Virus record (IMG/VR): IMGVR_UViG_3300032285_003957
Coordinates: 32,001 to 96,000 of that record
Source of the DNA: a virus
Taxonomy: Duplodnaviria; Caudoviricetes
Strand: one strand, 5' to 3'
DNA length: 64,000 bases
Shown here: in pieces, positions 24,723 to 34,420 of the stretch
How positions within the stretch are numbered: position 1 is the stretch's first letter
Layout of the letters: each line of letters opens with the position of its first letter
Notes under the pieces: model-generated
The model's database searches: none
What the model was told of the DNA's origin: nothing
The model's input: the letters and a program-made list of their open reading frames with translations, nothing else
Program-made: the position numbers and the translations under genes

Positions 24723-25119
24723 TGGTGGAGATGACGAGACTCGAACTCGTGTCTTTCCTGCTCAACAATAAATGACTACACGTTTATTACAACATTGTTT
24801 CTCAATGTTCCGAAATATCAGGTTTGATATATGTGAGAACCCTACCTGCAAACAACTTGGTCTTAGAATTATTTTAAACGAGCTCTAACCTGTCACCCGT
24901 ATATTGGACTTCTGTTCCTAGGTTAATGTCCTAATCGACCCGTGCATAGGAGGCTAACTTAGTTAGGCTGCTACTTTAGAAGTTGCAAGAATACCTGCAA
25001 TTTCCATGTTGTTGTAAACGTTGCCGTTTGAATTTTTCCACCGTAGATTTAAGTCATAGATGAAGTCTGACTACGTGCCATCTATCCCTGATACCTGAAA
25101 TCAATTCCAAAGCATCCCC
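24723..25119 (-). ncRNA. ssrA: tmRNA; tag GNVYNNMEIAGILATSKVAA* at 25025-24963
   Basis: 5' GGGGATG pairs with 3' CATCTCC-ACCA with G3-U; GTTCGAGTC T-loop; internal tag ending AA-stop; 397 nt. Confidence 0.95.
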
Positions 25120-25140
25120 ATATTTTAAAGAACTATAATG

Positions 25141-26999: not shown

Positions 27000-27807
27000 A
27001 AAACACTGAGAATACATGTCTTAACGAAACTCTTTAAAAGGATTATTTGATTCCCTTCGTTTCCACTAACTTTTGATTAGTAAGTTTCAGTCACGGCCAA
27101 TTAGATTAACCAATCCTTTCGCAATATCCTACTCTTTTAATACTCATTACTCATCAAATCTGCCGACCTGATTCAACCTTGCGGGTTTAGAGAACTTTCT
27201 CAAAAATCATATTGGGCTTGAGACCCTTTATGGCTGCGAACCCCTCGCAACTAAGTAGTGACCTATCGGACACTGCGGACGAACACTTTTTCTTGTTATA
27301 ATTTTAGTTGTTAAACCGCTATTAACAAAATTTAGTTTCCGAATTTGGGAAAGTAGTGGTTCGTCACCTAGCCAAGCCACCTTTTGAGCGACTCGATACT
27401 AAACTACTCTCTGTAACATCCCTGCTACCATATTTTTGGACTCCTTCAAAACTAAACCCTTGGTAGAGTTTAATAAAGGATGATAACAGCACCACCTGTT
27501 TTTCACCATACCTTTCGGTTTTAAGATTCCCATTATATTGAATCACGCAATGATATAGTCGGATAACTATACTTCTTACAATAACTCTATGGATTATTCT
27601 TATTGATGTTCCCATCTCAACCGAACAACTCGGATTGCTCGGTCATCAAACCACTTTCGCTACAGTGTTACCCTCACTACTTAAGGTTCAATGATATTCC
27701 ACTTGCCTACTCGAGCTCCATTACTGAAGCCGCAACTTACCCCAACCAAGGGTTTGTCACTTTATCCCACTTTCGTGGTTTATTTTAATCGACCATAGGC
27801 GGCCAAT
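27000..27807 (-). ncRNA. approximately 800-nt structured ncRNA, probably GOLLD-like
   Basis: no credible ORF, GC-enriched, many hairpins with GNRA loops, own promoter and terminator, next to a tRNA array; 3' hairpin GACA-UGUAUUCUCAG-UGUU resembles my recollection of the GOLLD 3' end. Confidence 0.6.
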
Positions 27808-27842
27808 ATTTTTAAATCAAAGAACTATTCTTGTTTCTTTTA

Positions 27843-28162: not shown

Positions 28163-28624
28163 TTAAATCCTTACTAAATGATTTGCTGCGTATGTCATCA
28201 ACGCACCTAAATGTTTGTATCTAACTTTATAACCCATCCCTTCAACCATACCAACTGCTTGTCTTAAAACAGAATTAGATTTGAACTTAGGATCAGGATT
28301 TAAATCGATATCAATCCATTGAGGTTTTGGTAATCCATTTTCTTTTAGATATTCCGCAATTTCAATTGACTTCCAAACTTCCGCAAGCAATCTGTTCGGT
28401 GTATTTCTTTCCATAGGTTCGGTTTCACGCGTGCATAACACGTGAGCACCTTTACCTTTTACATAAAGAGCAATAACAACACCATAGATTGTTTTTTTAT
28501 TTCCATAACATTGGGAATCAGAGCCAATGAGAATTTCCACATTCTCTCTTGTTGCGACATACTCTCTTATGTAATCTATTACATTTGGAATTGGAGTTCC
28601 ATAGAGAGTTCTAAATTTTTTCAT
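28163..28624 (-). CDS. DUF458/RNase H-like family protein
   Basis: ILIGSDSQ, EVWKSIEIA, IDIDLN motifs. Confidence 0.75.
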   Translation of the reverse strand: MKKFRTLYGTPIPNVIDYIREYVATRENVEILIGSDSQCYGNKKTIYGVVIALYVKGKGAHVLCTRETEPMERNTPNRLLAEVWKSIEIAEYLKENGLPKPQWIDIDLNPDPKFKSNSVLRQAVGMVEGMGYKVRYKHLGALMTYAANHLVRI

Positions 28625-28825: not shown

Positions 28826-28886
28826 ATATAAGGACCCAGTACCTCTTATGCTTTCACTCACCTGAGTCCAACGTGAGATAAGGTTG

Positions 28887-28976
28887 CAGAGAGTGAGGGG
28901 TTCGAACCCTCGCGCCGATTTAACTCGACCTAACAGTTTAGCAAACTGCCCCCTTCACCAACTTGGGTAACTCTCT
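28887..28976 (-). tRNA. tRNA-Ser(GCT)
   Basis: cloverleaf, loop TT-GCT-AA, long variable arm. Confidence 0.92.
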
Positions 28977-28977
28977 A

Positions 28978-29250
28978 TTAGTAGATGCTGTGTCTATCTT
29001 CTTCGTTTAATAACCCTTTACCAATATCAAACTTTTCAGCTCTTCTTTTTGCTTCTTCAGCTTCTTTAACCCAACGAATCCAAGTTAATGAAATATCAAT
29101 AGGTGCTAACACCCAAGCCATAACAATAACCATTATCGTGTCCAATTCTGCTGAATTTGAGGTTACACTTCCATCGTAGCGTTGTTTGTATTTACTAAAC
29201 AATTGATAAAAACAATACACAACGCAAATCAAATAATACGTAATTAACAT
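28978..29250 (-). CDS. small membrane protein (2 TM)
   Basis: start moved to ATG 29250 outside tRNA-Gln; two hydrophobic segments. Confidence 0.6.
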   Translation of the reverse strand: MLITYYLICVVYCFYQLFSKYKQRYDGSVTSNSAELDTIMVIVMAWVLAPIDISLTWIRWVKEAEEAKRRAEKFDIGKGLLNEEDRHSIY

Positions 29251-29265
29251 AAATAAAAATTTAAG

Positions 29266-29337
29266 TTGTCCCCCAGGGAATCGAACCCCACTTATCCGGA
29301 CCAAAACCGGATGTAATAACCGATATACGAGAGGACA
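29266..29337 (-). tRNA. tRNA-Gln(TTG)
   Basis: cloverleaf, TCCGG-TTTTGGT-CCGGA. Confidence 0.9.
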
Positions 29338-29416
29338 ATAATCTCAGGCATTCTACTTCCCGCAGCACGAAATTGTATCTTACTTAGCCCACCGTTAGCG
29401 GTATGGGAACCTGAGT

Positions 29417-29491
29417 TGGAGCAGATGAGAGGAATCGAACCTCCGTCTCCTACTTGGAAGGAAGGAGTAATGACCATTATACGACATCTGC
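29417..29491 (-). tRNA. tRNA-Gly(TCC), CCA encoded
   Basis: cloverleaf, loop CT-TCC-AA, U73. Confidence 0.92.
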
Positions 29492-29590
29492 ATTCATAGC
29501 AGTTATGTGAGCGCCCAACTCACAATACCACTACGTTTTAATGGATGAAAAACATCTGCTTTTCTTTCGGACTTCCATTGGAGTCCCATG

Positions 29591-29662
29591 AGCTCAGTAA
29601 CAGACTCGAACTGTTGTCTAATGATTACAAATCACTTGTTCTACCGACTGAACTAACCGAGC
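29591..29662 (-). tRNA. tRNA-Thr(TGT)
   Basis: cloverleaf, loop TT-TGT-AA. Confidence 0.9.
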
Positions 29663-29785
29663 AATTATTGGAACTTTAGAAGGTATTCCAACTGATGGTT
29701 TATGACTTTACCACACCACGATTCGCGAGCTGTAAGACCCCAATCATTGATACTCTTCTAACGCTTACACTTCAAGTATCTAGTG

Positions 29786-29858
29786 AGCGGAAGACCAGGC
29801 TCGAACTGGCCACCCCGACCTTGGCAAGGTCGTGCTCTACCGAATGAGCTACTTCCGC
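29786..29858 (-). tRNA. tRNA-Gly(GCC)
   Basis: canonical cloverleaf, CT-GCC-AA-type loop, U73. Confidence 0.95.
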
Positions 29859-29864
29859 TTGTTG

Positions 29865-29936
29865 TAGTCTCTGAGAATTTTGAAATCCCGACCCTCTCCA
29901 TGTAAGGGAGATGCTCTTCCTCTGAGCTAAGAGACT
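29865..29936 (-). tRNA. tRNA-Val(TAC), atypical T-arm
   Basis: loop CT-TAC-AT; T-arm GGGAT-TTCAAAA-TTCTC. Confidence 0.85.
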
Positions 29937-29937
29937 A

Positions 29938-30014
29938 TGGTGGACCAAACAGGGCTCGAACCTGTGACCTTGGCATTATGAGTGCCCTGCTCTAACCATC
30001 TGAGCTATAAGTCC
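29938..30014 (-). tRNA. tRNA(CAT), probably Ile2 (lysidine type), CCA encoded
   Basis: loop CT-CAT-AA, G1-C72; the cognate leader contains ATA, and other CAT tRNAs lie in the second array. Confidence 0.8.
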
Positions 30015-30021
30015 AATAAGG

Positions 30022-30127
30022 TGCCGAAGGAGGGATTTATACCCACACGCAGGTCATTTCGAACTCTGCTCCTTCTAGAATACAGCGCGTCTAACAGGTG
30101 GCCACCCGTCTATTCCGCCACTTCGGC
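30022..30127 (-). ncRNA. 106-nt Leu-type tRNA-like RNA with D-loop hairpin insertion and disrupted anticodon/T loops
   Basis: GCCGAAG/CTTCGGC acceptor, GCG/CGC D-stem, inserted GACGGGT-GGCC-ACCTGTT, T-loop TATAAAT. Confidence 0.65.
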
Positions 30128-30132
30128 ATGTG

Positions 30133-30215
30133 TGAGAGTGGACGGATTCGAACCGCCGAAGTCTAAGACTCCTGATTTACAGTCAGGTGCCAATTACCGC
30201 ATTGACAACACTCCC
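30133..30215 (-). tRNA. tRNA-Tyr(GTA)
   Basis: loop CT-GTA-AA, long variable arm. Confidence 0.9.
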
Positions 30216-30220
30216 ATTTG

Positions 30221-30301
30221 TGACCAAGGAGAGATTCGAACTCTCACGACTTACGTCATTGGTTCCTAAGACCAACGTGTCTACCGTTCCACCACTCGGC
30301 C
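30221..30301 (-). tRNA. tRNA-Leu(TAG)
   Basis: loop CT-TAG-GA, long variable arm, A73. Confidence 0.92.
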
Positions 30302-30308
30302 ATTGTTG

Positions 30309-30380
30309 CGCTGATGGAGAATTACGATATCTCAACCTATTGATTAACAGTCAATTGCTCTGCCGTTGAGCTACATCAGC
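30309..30380 (-). tRNA. tRNA-Asn(GTT), atypical T-arm
   Basis: loop CT-GTT-AA, G73; T-arm GAGAT-ATCGTAA-TTCTC. Confidence 0.85.
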
Positions 30381-30385
30381 TTTTG

Positions 30386-30459
30386 TTGGGAATGCAGGAT
30401 TCGAACCTACGGCCTCTTGGTCCCAAACCAAGCGCGATACCGGACTACGCTAATTCCCA
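30386..30459 (-). tRNA. tRNA-Pro(TGG)
   Basis: loop TT-TGG-GA. Confidence 0.92.
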
Positions 30460-30465
30460 TTTTAG

Positions 30466-30539
30466 TGATTCCGTTTGGATTCGAACCAAAGACCCACATC
30501 TTAGAAGGATGTTGCTCTATCCAACTGAGCTACGGAACC
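30466..30539 (-). tRNA. tRNA-Arg(TCT)
   Basis: loop CT-TCT-AA. Confidence 0.93.
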
Positions 30540-30540
30540 A

Positions 30541-30975
30541 TTATTTAATATTTTTTGCTCGATATGTTTCCGTTTGTGAATGACAATTAGGACATAACAT
30601 TCTTAAATTTTCTAATTTATGATTTGTTCGATTCCCATCGATATGGTCTAATTCCATATTTAATTTTTTACCATTCCATTCTTCAATGTCACATATAAAA
30701 CATTTGTTTTCGATTATTTTTTCTTTTAATAATCTATTTTTTAATTTGAATGTTTGGAAATGTGGATGTTTACCTTCCAATATTTCCTGTAAATCTACTT
30801 TAGGTGGGACAATCTTATTTGTTCCTTTTCCTGATTGATTCGTTACGTAACAACCAAATTTAATTGCATACTTTTTAAAAGTATTAAAATGTAAATCTAA
30901 TTTACTTGCTGCTTCAGCCATTGATTTAGATTCTTGACAGATTTTTATAAAATCGTTTTGATTAAAATGTTTCAT
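30541..30975 (-). CDS. HNH endonuclease inserted in the tRNA array
   Basis: CFIC, ELDHIDG, NLRMLCPNCHSQT; TATTTAT at 30980-30986. Confidence 0.9.
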   Translation of the reverse strand: MKHFNQNDFIKICQESKSMAEAASKLDLHFNTFKKYAIKFGCYVTNQSGKGTNKIVPPKVDLQEILEGKHPHFQTFKLKNRLLKEKIIENKCFICDIEEWNGKKLNMELDHIDGNRTNHKLENLRMLCPNCHSQTETYRAKNIK

Positions 30976-31031
30976 ATTAATAAATATCATACACTTTAGA
31001 AAAAACCATTTTAGTGTCTATCTTTTTCATG

Positions 31032-31116
31032 TACTTCCGACCAGAATCGAACTGGTACGAACTTTCAGTTCATAGCATTTTAAGTGCTACGTGTCTACCA
31101 GTTCCACCACGGAAGC
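31032..31116 (-). tRNA. tRNA-Leu(TAA)
   Basis: loop CT-TAA-AA, long variable arm. Confidence 0.93.
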
Positions 31117-31169
31117 GTTTTTTCCCAATATGTCAAAGAACAATACTAATATAAAAAATAAAATTCACT

Positions 31170-31208
31170 AAAACAAAAAACCCGAACTTTTTTAATTTGT
31201 TCGGGTTT
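31170..31208 (-). terminator. attenuator terminator ahead of tRNA array B
   Basis: AAACCCGAAC/GTTCGGGTTT stem followed by TTTGTTTT. Confidence 0.85.
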
Positions 31209-31230
31209 CAATATTCTAATTTAAATTATT

Positions 31231-31338
31231 TTAAATAAGTGTGTCCGAACTTAAAGCGCATGTAGGTTGCACAAGATAGCCATTACCATTTGTTAACGGT
31301 CTACTCGTAATCCCCAATATGTTATTTAAGTTCTTCAT
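31231..31338 (-). CDS. leader peptide B, 35 aa: MKNLNNILGITSRPLTNGNGYLVQPTCALSSDTLI
   Basis: manually translated; lies between promoter box and terminator; codons match array B tRNAs. Confidence 0.8.
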   Translation of the reverse strand: MKNLNNILGITSRPLTNGNGYLVQPTCALSSDTLI

Positions 31339-31356
31339 CGTTTTTATAAGTATAAG

Positions 31357-31364
31357 CAAATATA
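31357..31364 (-). promoter_or_regulatory. Bacteroidota-type -7 box (TATATTTG) for leader B/tRNA array B
   Basis: TAnnTTTG match 19 nt upstream of the leader ATG. Confidence 0.7.
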
Positions 31365-31405
31365 CAAAAAGTTTCAATAATAAAAAAATAATCATAAAAA
31401 TATTT

Positions 31406-31564
31406 TTACCAACGTTTCATTGGCGGTGGTGAAAATCGTGGTTGATAGTATCTGTGCACATGATACATTCCGTTCCATGGATGACGATGTGTATAAATTG
31501 CACGTTCGTAATAACATCCACTGAATGTCACTGCGATTAACAATAAGAATAATAACTTTTTCAT
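31406..31564 (-). CDS. small lipoprotein (52 aa)
   Basis: manually translated: MKKLLFLLLIAVTFSG-C lipobox; TATTTAT upstream. Confidence 0.65.
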   Translation of the reverse strand: MKKLLFLLLIAVTFSGCYYERAIYTHRHPWNGMYHVHRYYQPRFSPPPMKRW

Positions 31565-31578
31565 ATTAATAAATATTT

Positions 31579-32310
31579 TTAGTTTTTAACTAATTTAGTT
31601 CTTGATATAAAATTATAACTCTCTTCAAATGTTACAGGCTTTTCAATCGCACGTCTTTTTATATTAAGGACATATAACGCATATGAAAGTGCAGCACCTT
31701 CGCCATGACCATATATTGTTCTTCGATATAAATTCTTATCATATAATGATGCATATTCAAACACTGGTTTTATTTTTTCCAACTCATATTGAATTTTATC
31801 GTAATCTAATCCAACAGGGAAATAAAACAATTGTTCAAACATTGTTTCTAATTTTGATGGTTCGGTTCCTTCCAATGTGAGAAACTCAATTATTGGACGA
31901 GCCCATTTATCAACGTTTATGTCAGGTAGATATTTCCATGATTTCCATTCACCGTTAACATTAACGGGCCAAAAAGTCAAATATAAAACCTCATCAAAAC
32001 TTTCAAGTGTTCGATATTTTTCATCGCTTAAAAATACGTTTAGGCTATCACAATCAACATATGTAACATCAGTTTTTAATTCCTTAATTAATTTAAAACT
32101 AAAAAAGAATTTATCAAAATAGCTGAATATTTTTTTTTCGTATTGATATGTTGTGCAACCAACCCCTTCAAATTCTTGAGGTGTGTCTGTTAATATTCTA
32201 ACATCAAAATTGAATTCATTAACTAAACGCTTAACATTATCAATGCATTGACTTGCATATGATAAACCGTCATCGTCCACACCGACACATATTAATGCTA
32301 ATACTTTCAT
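31579..32310 (-). CDS. glycosyltransferase-like hypothetical protein (paralog 2)
   Basis: FSYFDKFFFSFKLIKEL, YVDCD, GHGEG shared with the adjacent paralog. Confidence 0.65.
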   Translation of the reverse strand: MKVLALICVGVDDDGLSYASQCIDNVKRLVNEFNFDVRILTDTPQEFEGVGCTTYQYEKKIFSYFDKFFFSFKLIKELKTDVTYVDCDSLNVFLSDEKYRTLESFDEVLYLTFWPVNVNGEWKSWKYLPDINVDKWARPIIEFLTLEGTEPSKLETMFEQLFYFPVGLDYDKIQYELEKIKPVFEYASLYDKNLYRRTIYGHGEGAALSYALYVLNIKRRAIEKPVTFEESYNFISRTKLVKN

Positions 32311-32312
32311 GT

Positions 32313-33053
32313 TTAAATCAATGTTTTACTTTTGTCTTGGAATATGACGTCATATCTTTCTCTAAATAACATTTGATCCTCAAGTTTTTCTTTACCAATA
32401 TTATTAACATCTAAAGCGTATGAAAGAGCTAAACCTTCACCATGTCCAAATATTAATCGGTTATTTAAATTTATAGAATACAACGACATATATTCAAACA
32501 CAGGTTTTATTTTTTCCAATTCATATTGAACATTATCGTAGTCCAAACCAACGGGAAAATACAATAAACGTTCGTGCATTGTCTCTAACTTAGATATATC
32601 ATATTTTTCCATTTCAAAAAATTCCAATAACGGATGTGACCAAATATCAAACTTAAAATCTTTTAAAAATTGATATGTCACCCATTCTTTGCTATTTTTA
32701 ACGGACCAATATGTTAAATATAACACCTTATTTTGACTTTCTAAATTTCTAAATTTTTCAATTTTAAGTAAATAATCGATACAATCACAATCAATGTAAG
32801 TTACCGATTTATTTAACTCCTTAATTAACTTAAATGAAAAAAAGAACTTATCAAAGTAGCTGAATATTTTCTTATCGTATTTGTAAATTGAACATCCAAG
32901 ACCTTCAAATTCTTTTGGTGTGTCAGTTAATAATCTAACATCGAAACCAAAAACATCAATCAATTGCTTTACATTCTCAACACATTGGGTGTAGTATGGA
33001 ACACCTTTGTAATCATTCCCAACAGATATAATTGCAACTGTTTTCATCTTCAT
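32313..33053 (-). CDS. glycosyltransferase-like hypothetical protein (paralog 1)
   Basis: tandem paralog with YIDCD DxD motif. Confidence 0.65.
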   Translation of the reverse strand: MKMKTVAIISVGNDYKGVPYYTQCVENVKQLIDVFGFDVRLLTDTPKEFEGLGCSIYKYDKKIFSYFDKFFFSFKLIKELNKSVTYIDCDCIDYLLKIEKFRNLESQNKVLYLTYWSVKNSKEWVTYQFLKDFKFDIWSHPLLEFFEMEKYDISKLETMHERLLYFPVGLDYDNVQYELEKIKPVFEYMSLYSINLNNRLIFGHGEGLALSYALDVNNIGKEKLEDQMLFRERYDVIFQDKSKTLI

Positions 33054-33056
33054 ATG

Positions 33057-33128
33057 TACTCCCAACGGGATTCGAACCCGTGACTCATCCGTGAAAGGGA
33101 CGTGACTTAACCGCTTGTCGATGGGAGC
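33057..33128 (-). tRNA. tRNA-Glu(TTC)
   Basis: loop CT-TTC-AC. Confidence 0.92.
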
Positions 33129-34203: not shown

Positions 34204-34218
34204 AGTTAAAAGTTTTAG

Positions 34219-34290
34219 TTGCGAGAGAGGGAATCGAACCCCCGACCTAAAGGTTATGAGCCTTCCGAGCTACCGCTGCTCTATCTCGCG
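34219..34290 (-). tRNA. initiator tRNA-fMet(CAT)
   Basis: C1-A72 mismatch, loop CT-CAT-AA. Confidence 0.9.
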
Positions 34291-34352: not shown

Positions 34353-34420
34353 TTGCGGGGCCAGGAGTCGAACCTGGAACACTCGGCTTATGAGGCCGGT
34401 GGGAAACCATTCTCCCCGCA
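34353..34420 (-). tRNA. tRNA-Met(CAT) with reduced D-arm (68 nt)
   Basis: good acceptor, anticodon and T arms; D-arm only TGG-TTTC-CCA. Confidence 0.7.

Follow-up and report, generated by a model that had tools for sequence, protein, structure and literature searches.

Phage tRNA genes are usually viewed as constitutive cargo, serving either to adjust codon usage or to replace the tRNAs that host defences remove. The locus described here raises the question of why an array of such genes should be preceded by a short open reading frame (ORF) and an intrinsic terminator. The virus record (IMGVR_UViG_3300032285_003957) is a single contig of 234,116 bp with 33.5% G+C. The stretch that was analysed, 64,000 nucleotides at positions 32,001 to 96,000 of the record (hereafter the window), carries every tRNA gene of the record, all on the minus strand according to ARAGORN and Rfam, and these genes form two blocks, arrays A and B. 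It is proposed that leader B and its terminator form a ribosome-mediated (leader-peptide) transcription attenuator for the tRNA genes of array B. This reading is considered likely in the absence of expression data, and most of the doubt that attaches to it concerns the share of transcription that comes from a downstream promoter. An initial annotation had interpreted the element as an independent leader-peptide attenuator with codons matched to array B, an interpretation that comparative evidence supports. Its sequence statements (the ORF, the codon list, the GTTCGG/CCGAAC complementarity and a T/A-rich tract downstream of the terminator) all held on re-checking.

The elements of leader B are listed in Table 1. 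The first of these, P1, is taken to be a promoter from the published Bacteroidota consensus TAnnTTTG, its function being inferred; an 18-nt A-rich spacer separates it from the leader ATG. Of 36 leader types, 28 have a strict TAnnTTTG in the 60 nt that precede the ATG, in most cases at a distance of 25–26 nt. The leader ORF encodes a peptide that begins MKNLNNILGITSRP. A 54-codon reading from an ATG at 31395 was rejected, as relatives keep only the 33–36-codon ORF, and a Pfam search with this 54-residue translation, which contains the 35-residue ORF, returned no match. Region 2 has two alternative partners, region 1 or the 5′ arm of the terminator, and its GTTCGG core is the exact complement of CCGAAC in that arm. 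The terminator begins 22 nt after the ORF stop, has a 10-bp stem and is separated from tRNA-Leu(taa) by a 58-nt spacer.

Table 1. Leader B, the two tRNA arrays and neighbouring features, in window coordinates (position 1 is the first nucleotide of the window).
Feature	Coordinates	Strand	Description	Basis
P1	31357..31364	minus	promoter-like −7 box TATATTTG (TAnnTTTG type)	sequence
Leader ORF B	31231..31338	minus	35 codons plus TAA; ATG at 31338, TAA at 31233-31231	
Region 1	31325..31333	minus	GAACTTAAA, codons 2-5; putative anti-antiterminator	minimum-free-energy fold, covariation
Sensor window	31261..31332	minus	codons 3-26	codon/tRNA matching, family-wide positional profile
Region 2	31245..31255	minus	TTTAAGTTCGG; core GTTCGG at 31250-31245 (codons 30-32)	
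Intrinsic terminator	31175..31208	minus	AAACCCGAAC / 11-nt loop / GTTCGGGTTT / T6	
Region 3	31208-31199	minus	terminator 5′ arm AAACCCGAAC	
Region 4	31187-31178	minus	terminator 3′ arm GTTCGGGTTT	
P2-like site	31146..31153	minus	TATATTAG, degenerate TAnnTTTG; possible bypass promoter	
Conserved box	31130..31141	minus	GTTCTTTGACAT, before first tRNA; kept in nearly all relatives	
tRNA-Leu(taa)	starts 31116	minus	first gene of array B	
Array B	28886..31116	minus	presumed regulated genes, 13 tRNAs and an HNH gene: Leu(taa), HNH gene, Arg(tct), Pro, Asn, Leu(tag), Tyr, CAT, Val, Gly(gcc), Thr, Gly(tcc), Gln, Ser(gct)	ARAGORN, Rfam
HNH endonuclease gene	30541-30990	minus	between tRNA-Leu(taa) and tRNA-Arg(tct)	weak Pfam HNH matches
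CAT tRNA, array B	29938-30014	minus	elongator-like, CCA end encoded	
Array A	36007 to 33056	minus	Ala, Ile, Phe, Lys, Trp, Arg-acg, Cys, His, two CAT tRNAs, Asp, Ser-tga, Glu	
CAT tRNA, array A	34218-34290	minus	C1xA72 mismatch, initiator-like	
CAT tRNA, array A	34353-34420	minus	odd D arm, 3-bp D stem	Rfam; ARAGORN only when relaxed
Tandem paralogous genes	31579-32310, 32313-33065	minus	243 and 250 aa, between the arrays	
Lipoprotein-like ORF	31406-31564		52 aa, after the paralogue pair	
RNase H-like gene	28163-28624		adjoins array B	
GOLLD RNA	27003-27411	minus	just downstream of the tRNA arrays	
Phage tmRNA	24723-25119	minus	just downstream of the tRNA arrays	

The codon match between leader B and array B exceeds chance. 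The sensor codons 3–26 are exactly those listed in the initial annotation; array-B tRNAs decode 23 of the 24, with ATT the sole exception, and all 13 array-B tRNAs have at least one codon. Each of these tRNAs has just 1–5 codons in leader B. Among approximately 60,000 segments of the same length taken from the genome's long ORFs, none combined full coverage of the set with a cognate run of at least 16 codons; full coverage was found in 0.2% (B set) or 0.08% (A set) of segments, and a run of at least 16 same-set codons in 0.6% (B set) or 0.14% (A set). A survey of all ATG-started ORFs of 25–60 codons, in six frames of the whole genome, gave 881 small ORFs, and only leaders A and B displayed both coverage and run. 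Leader A (36167–36069) has an unbroken run of 16 array-A codons and leaves none of the 12 array-A tRNAs without a codon. The two leaders were claimed at the outset to use complementary codon sets, and this held: leader A has 21 A-set and 10 B-set codons, versus 7 and 27 in leader B (Fisher p = 1.6e-4). A second claim, that G-ending codons are unusually frequent in both leaders, held only in part. Their genome-wide frequency is 8.0%; leader B shows a significant excess (7/34, p = 0.016), whereas the value for leader A (3/27) does not reach significance.

The codon sets also bear on the identity of the three CAT-anticodon tRNAs in the genome (Table 1), among whose tRNA genes there is no UAU tRNA. 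Leader B has an ATA codon and no internal ATG, whereas leader A has two internal ATG codons and no ATA, a distribution that fits an Ile2 identity for the array-B CAT tRNA. This identity, suggested in the initial annotation, is plausible, but the support for it is indirect, and Ile2 and Met cannot be distinguished from sequence.

The match to the array ends at a defined distance from region 2. In a positional profile drawn from 23 leaders whose arrays are well sampled, 0.8–1.0 of the codons are cognate at distances of 25 down to 4 codons upstream of region 2; at a distance of 3 codons the fraction is 0.35, and inside region 2 it is 0.04–0.35. By inference, a ribosome stalled 4 codons before region 2 would reach about the first base of region 2, and the loss of cognate codons probably corresponds to the 3′ reach of a stalled ribosome, approximately one footprint. 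Codons closer than 4 to region 2 could not signal, and these are the same codons that are without constraint.

Conservation of this anatomy was established with two sets of relatives. The RNase H-like gene that adjoins array B retrieved 40 IMG/VR loci and thus relatives that are independent of the element. In the closer group (76–94% identity), leader B precedes tRNA-Leu(taa) in every locus with this tRNA except L024, the ORF has 33–36 codons, GTTCGG begins 82–88 nt into the ORF, and the stop-to-terminator distance is 24–26 nt. Ten distinct leader versions retrieved via the neighbouring protein, rather than via the element, share the geometry. A second IMG/VR search, with a pattern of region 2 and terminator, produced 69 loci and 41 distinct leaders, with ORFs of 28–36 codons. 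More than 40 distinct versions keep the ORF, its length and the position of GTTCGG. The terminator stem CCCGAAC/GTTCGGG is invariant in all relatives, including those found through the neighbouring protein, and its loop varies freely. In a distant group (56–60% identity), the tRNA genes form one long array in a reshuffled order, headed by a single merged leader of 38–53 codons that spans nearly all 20 amino acids, and the terminator of this merged leader ends 5–20 nt before tRNA-Asn. A nucleotide search of GenBank phages with the leader region returned tRNA-Leu matches only.

Several further observations concern the surroundings of these leaders. In L096 (IMG/VR record 640196209_000005), the region 2 and CCCGAAC terminator pattern accompanies a 36-codon ORF with no tRNA within 1.8 kb downstream, making this locus an exception or an attenuator with another target. 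The HNH endonuclease gene occupies a gap in array B of the window, and similar-sized gaps occur at other positions in the arrays of relatives, suggesting mobile insertions. For the 243-aa member of the paralogous pair between the arrays, no Pfam match was found, and a pattern search found no relatives in IMG/VR. GOLLD lies just downstream of the tRNA arrays in the window and, in distant relatives (L030:72-481), immediately upstream of tRNA-Gly and the merged leader; the linkage between GOLLD and the tRNA array is therefore kept across the phage group. Several relatives carry tRNAs with a CTA anticodon (labelled Pyl by ARAGORN, i.e. TAG-reading), which are situated approximately 5 kb downstream of the RNase H-like gene in L016, L017 and L021, and near the tRNA arrays in L057 and L098. 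They may indicate suppressor tRNAs or stop-codon reassignment in part of the phage group.

A conserved ORF admits the alternative explanation of a gene for a small functional peptide, complete with promoter and terminator, whose position before tRNA genes and whose composition are incidental. In support of this view, the ORF is conserved, partial motifs recur (N-N-I near the start and N-G-N-G in mid-peptide), and the promoter–ORF–terminator unit is self-contained. Against it, the residue order changes and radical substitutions accumulate while the tRNA set is retained. The window and L013 peptides differ at approximately 13 residues, many of the differences being radical (Gly to Arg, Tyr to Gly, Ser to Pro, Arg to Asn), and yet every substituted codon is still an array-B codon and coverage remains complete. 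The N-I motif falls at the position of RNA region 1, and region 2 survives a shift of frame: in L020, GTTCGG lies in another reading frame and is therefore conserved as RNA, not as peptide. The peptide has no Pfam match, its composition follows the array across lineages, and the leader is unique in the genome for both coverage and run length, its sister leader A aside. A functional peptide is accordingly held to be very improbable as the explanation of this locus.

The attenuator reading draws comparative support from relatives with other tRNA sets. Matching of codons to tRNAs is observed across lineages as well as within this genome, and leader composition follows the downstream tRNA set where sets differ. 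In the relative G001 (310 kb, with direct terminal repeats), tRNA-Gln sits in array A, not in array B. Its leader B has no Gln codon, with CTA where other leaders have CAA, and its leader A has two Gln codons inside a 25-codon cognate run; the window leader A has one Gln codon, positioned before its cognate run. Several leaders that share the B terminator head arrays of quite another composition, to which their codons correspond. The clearest case is L068, where an uninterrupted stretch of 23 codons covers exactly the first 12 downstream tRNAs and is made up solely of Lys, Leu-CTN, Val, Asn, Gln, Ile-ATY, His, Phe, Cys, Trp, Tyr and Arg-CGN codons. Eleven consecutive codons of the L085 leader specify Arg-CGN, Ser, His, Lys and Phe, and the downstream array comprises Phe, His, Lys, Arg-acg and three Ser tRNAs. 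Codons for Ser, Gln, Pro, Phe, Asn, Val, Ile and His abound in the L104 leader, and exactly those tRNAs follow. The L072 leader lacks Thr codons, and tRNA-Thr belongs to the other array there.

An array-swap test, performed on 13 leader types with 200,000 permutations, quantified this correspondence. The fraction of sensor codons served by a leader's own array (precision) averaged 0.81, versus 0.50 for the arrays of other leaders, and the fraction of array tRNAs with a codon in their own leader (recall) averaged 0.95, versus 0.60. None of the 200,000 permutations reached the observed value (z = 5.5). Tracking is nonetheless imperfect. L018 retains Thr codons though tRNA-Thr is in the other array, L003 and L022 retain GGT without Gly-gcc, L022 also retains GTG without tRNA-Val, and Gly codons persist in L013, whose short contig carries no Gly tRNA. 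The array of L023 is much reduced.

The RNA itself provides further evidence. In the minimum-free-energy fold predicted for the untranslated leader, a long hairpin pairs GAACUUAAA (codons 2–5) with UUUAAGUUC, and the terminator also forms. UUUAAGUUC overlaps region 2; region 1 pairs with region 2 and its 5′ flank. This 1:2 helix, GAACTTAAA/TTTAAGTTC, was missed in the initial annotation, and its covariation supports the attenuator reading put forward there. Across 26 aligned B-type leaders, four of its nine pairs change on both sides (for example, UA 12 / AU 9 and AU 12 / GC 9). The covariation score is 0.207, compared with 0.106 when shuffled (0 of 500 as high) and at most 0.103 in slid controls. 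Region 1 was absent from every search pattern, and the test of 1:2 covariation is therefore independent. A codon-shuffle test of the 1:2 duplex energy (mean z = −1.2; 22% of leaders with p ≤ 0.05) was dropped in favour of the alignment count, being weak because shuffled codons keep the same pairing-prone words.

The antiterminator pairing (2:3) spans 6 bp in the window and 7–8 bp in B-type relatives; the original caveat that its core is only 6 bp therefore held for the window copy. A 6-bp match alone is estimated to arise by chance in approximately 1 leader in 5, and its significance rests on the relatives and not on the window copy alone. For an 8-nt match between region 2 and the arm, the estimated chance is approximately 0.01 per leader. 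No covariation of the 2:3 core could be shown inside the B family, where the core is invariant and also forms part of the 69-locus search pattern. Matched changes between lineages are, in contrast, directly visible. Eight different versions of region 2 and the terminator 5′ arm occur across leader classes, and all are complementary: GTTCGG/CCGAAC in B leaders, AGTCTCAG/CTGAGACT in the window leader A, GTTCCGAG/CTCGGAAC in the G001 leader A, GTTAGAGG/CCTCTAAC in L028 and L038, GTTAGGGG/CCCCTAAC in L039, GTCAGGGT/ACCCTGAC in L026, and weaker pairs in two further classes.

Folding with a masked ribosome predicted that stalls at codons 3, 7 and 24 lead to 2:3 pairing in the nascent RNA, and that a ribosome on the stop codon abolishes it. 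With the ribosome at codons 13 and 20, the 1:2 helix re-forms behind it, and a trailing second ribosome would therefore be needed. The predicted energies are −8.7 kcal/mol for the 2:3 hairpin, −9.2 kcal/mol for the 1:2 duplex and −14.7 kcal/mol for the terminator hairpin. As 2:3 is weaker than the terminator, any antitermination must be a kinetic effect, which is also the case for classical attenuators. Some merged-type leaders have a region 2 that ends 23–29 nt before the stop, too far away for a ribosome on the stop codon to cover it.

The location of region 1 invites a further alternative, in which the switch senses translation itself, or its general speed, and not specific tRNAs. Any ribosome entering the leader would then open 1:2 and give read-through. 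In favour of this model, region 1 directly follows the start codon, so that initiation alone would free region 2, and the 1:2 helix is well supported. The model offers no account of the match between codons and array, of the end of this match one footprint before region 2, or of complementary sets in two leaders of one genome, and it is held to be very unlikely.

In the proposed attenuator, transcription would begin at P1, and the 35-codon leader would be translated while it emerges. Without a ribosome, region 1 would pair with region 2, leaving regions 3 and 4 to form the terminator, and transcription would stop before tRNA-Leu. If codons 3–26 are read rapidly, the ribosome at the end of the ORF would cover region 2, and the terminator would again form. 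If the ribosome stalls within codons 3–26, through scarcity of the cognate tRNA for any of the 13, it would cover region 1 and leave region 2 free. Free region 2 would then pair with region 3, no terminator would form, and RNA polymerase would enter array B, the products of which would relieve the stall and so exert negative feedback on tRNA supply. Sensitivity to each single tRNA may be low, because each has 1–5 codons and not a run. In the absence of expression data, it is only by inference that the leader is taken to be translated and ribosomes to stall on it, and the same applies to the direction in which the switch responds and to the share of read-through relative to a second promoter.

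The most serious objection is that most transcription of array B starts from a promoter located beyond the terminator, namely P2 and/or the GTTCTTTGACAT box, and that the attenuator contributes little or governs only the fate of a short leader transcript. A possible bypass promoter had been raised as a caveat in the initial annotation, and this caveat stands: the T/A-rich tract between terminator and tRNA-Leu contains TATATTAG, and half of the relatives have a consensus promoter in this position. TAnnTTTG with TTTG approximately 19 nt upstream is the Bacteroidota promoter consensus. Bacteroidota are also the probable hosts for relatives of this phage. A strict TAnnTTTG occurs in the terminator–tRNA spacer of 18 of 36 leader types, several with TTTG approximately 19 nt upstream, and the arrangement TTTG-N19-TATATTTG is found in the spacer of many relatives. 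Distant relatives possess a promoter, the box and tRNA-Leu(taa) without any leader. Nearly all relatives carry the box GTTCTTTGACAT ahead of their first tRNA, whether or not P2 is present. In the window genome, it (as GTTCTTT(G/A)A..) also lies directly before the tmRNA 5′ end (25122–25133, minus strand) and approximately 400 nt upstream of the GOLLD match (27817–27825, minus strand), following promoter motifs of both genes. Over the three sites in this genome, the distance from the TAnnTTTG motif to the box ranges from a few to approximately 17 nt. It is possible that the box is a 5′-leader or processing signal of stable RNAs. Its interpretation as a sigma-70 or ECF promoter was considered and does not fit, and a by-eye search for pairing between the box and other parts of the leader found none.

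Against a dominant downstream promoter, the window spacer contains only the degenerate TATATTAG, and L013 and many non-B types either have no spacer TAnnTTTG or have spacers of 15–45 nt. In A-type and merged-type relatives, the terminator ends 5–20 nt before the first tRNA; this leaves no room for a promoter, and read-through is therefore the sole route there. Furthermore, the codon set has been kept matched to the array, including the loss of Gln from the G001 leader B, which is hard to explain without read-through. A marginal role for the attenuator is therefore regarded as unlikely, although less firmly so than the peptide and general-translation alternatives. From the promoter-like sites and the box around the spacer, it is inferred that array B probably has, or had, its own promoter, and that the attenuator adds a regulated input.

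Leader B was compared with the amino-acid operon attenuators, which include ilvGMEDA of E. coli and Salmonella (Ile/Leu/Val), thr (Thr/Ile), and the single-amino-acid leaders trpL, hisL, leuL and pheL. It shares with them a short translated leader, mutually exclusive 1:2, 2:3 and 3:4 pairings, an intrinsic terminator before the genes, a decision made by ribosome position, and the sensing of more than one codon type. It differs in that it controls tRNAs rather than biosynthetic enzymes, that it has 1–5 codons for each of 13 tRNAs in place of runs for 1–3 amino acids, that the sensed tRNA is the operon's own product, and that region 1 occupies the very beginning of the ORF, which also contains region 2. 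The Rfam leader families (Trp, His, Leu, Thr and similar) gave no match at the gathering score and nothing credible at E values up to 10. The E. coli pheST attenuator (pheM, with Phe codons) places a translation-apparatus gene under leader-peptide attenuation that responds to charged-tRNA supply; unlike leader B, it senses one tRNA and controls a synthetase. T-box riboswitches also switch between terminator and antiterminator on tRNA status, but a T-box binds one uncharged tRNA directly and requires no translation, whereas leader B has a conserved ORF and concerns 13 tRNAs; the Rfam T-box model did not match leader B. The closest counterparts are leader A, the terminator of which precedes tRNA-Ala, and the merged leaders, which have the same architecture and logic. 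Leader A differs from leader B in its peptide and in having its own region 2/terminator pair; its terminator abuts the first tRNA, so that a P2-like site and the box are lacking.

The mechanism itself is classical attenuation; its tRNA-gene target and its codon-checklist design were not described in the literature searched, and a full-text search found no description of leader-peptide control of tRNA genes. To our knowledge, no described attenuator extends beyond two or three amino acids, whereas leaders A and B span 12–13 tRNAs. If the proposed reading is correct, the phage gauges the decoding speed of the listed codons and makes tRNAs on demand, and attenuation extends from amino-acid supply to the tRNA pool itself. 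For annotation, leader composition would predict the tRNAs of one transcription unit and help to assign ambiguous CAT tRNAs. A bolder reading, which is no more than possible, is that attenuators of this codon-checklist type are widespread among large phages, where they form a self-tuning circuit and also act as a sensor of host attacks on tRNA. In that case, tRNA loss caused by an anticodon nuclease or triggered by infection would stall the ribosome on the leader and switch on the replacement array, and separate arrays with their own leaders would allow separate responses to separate losses.
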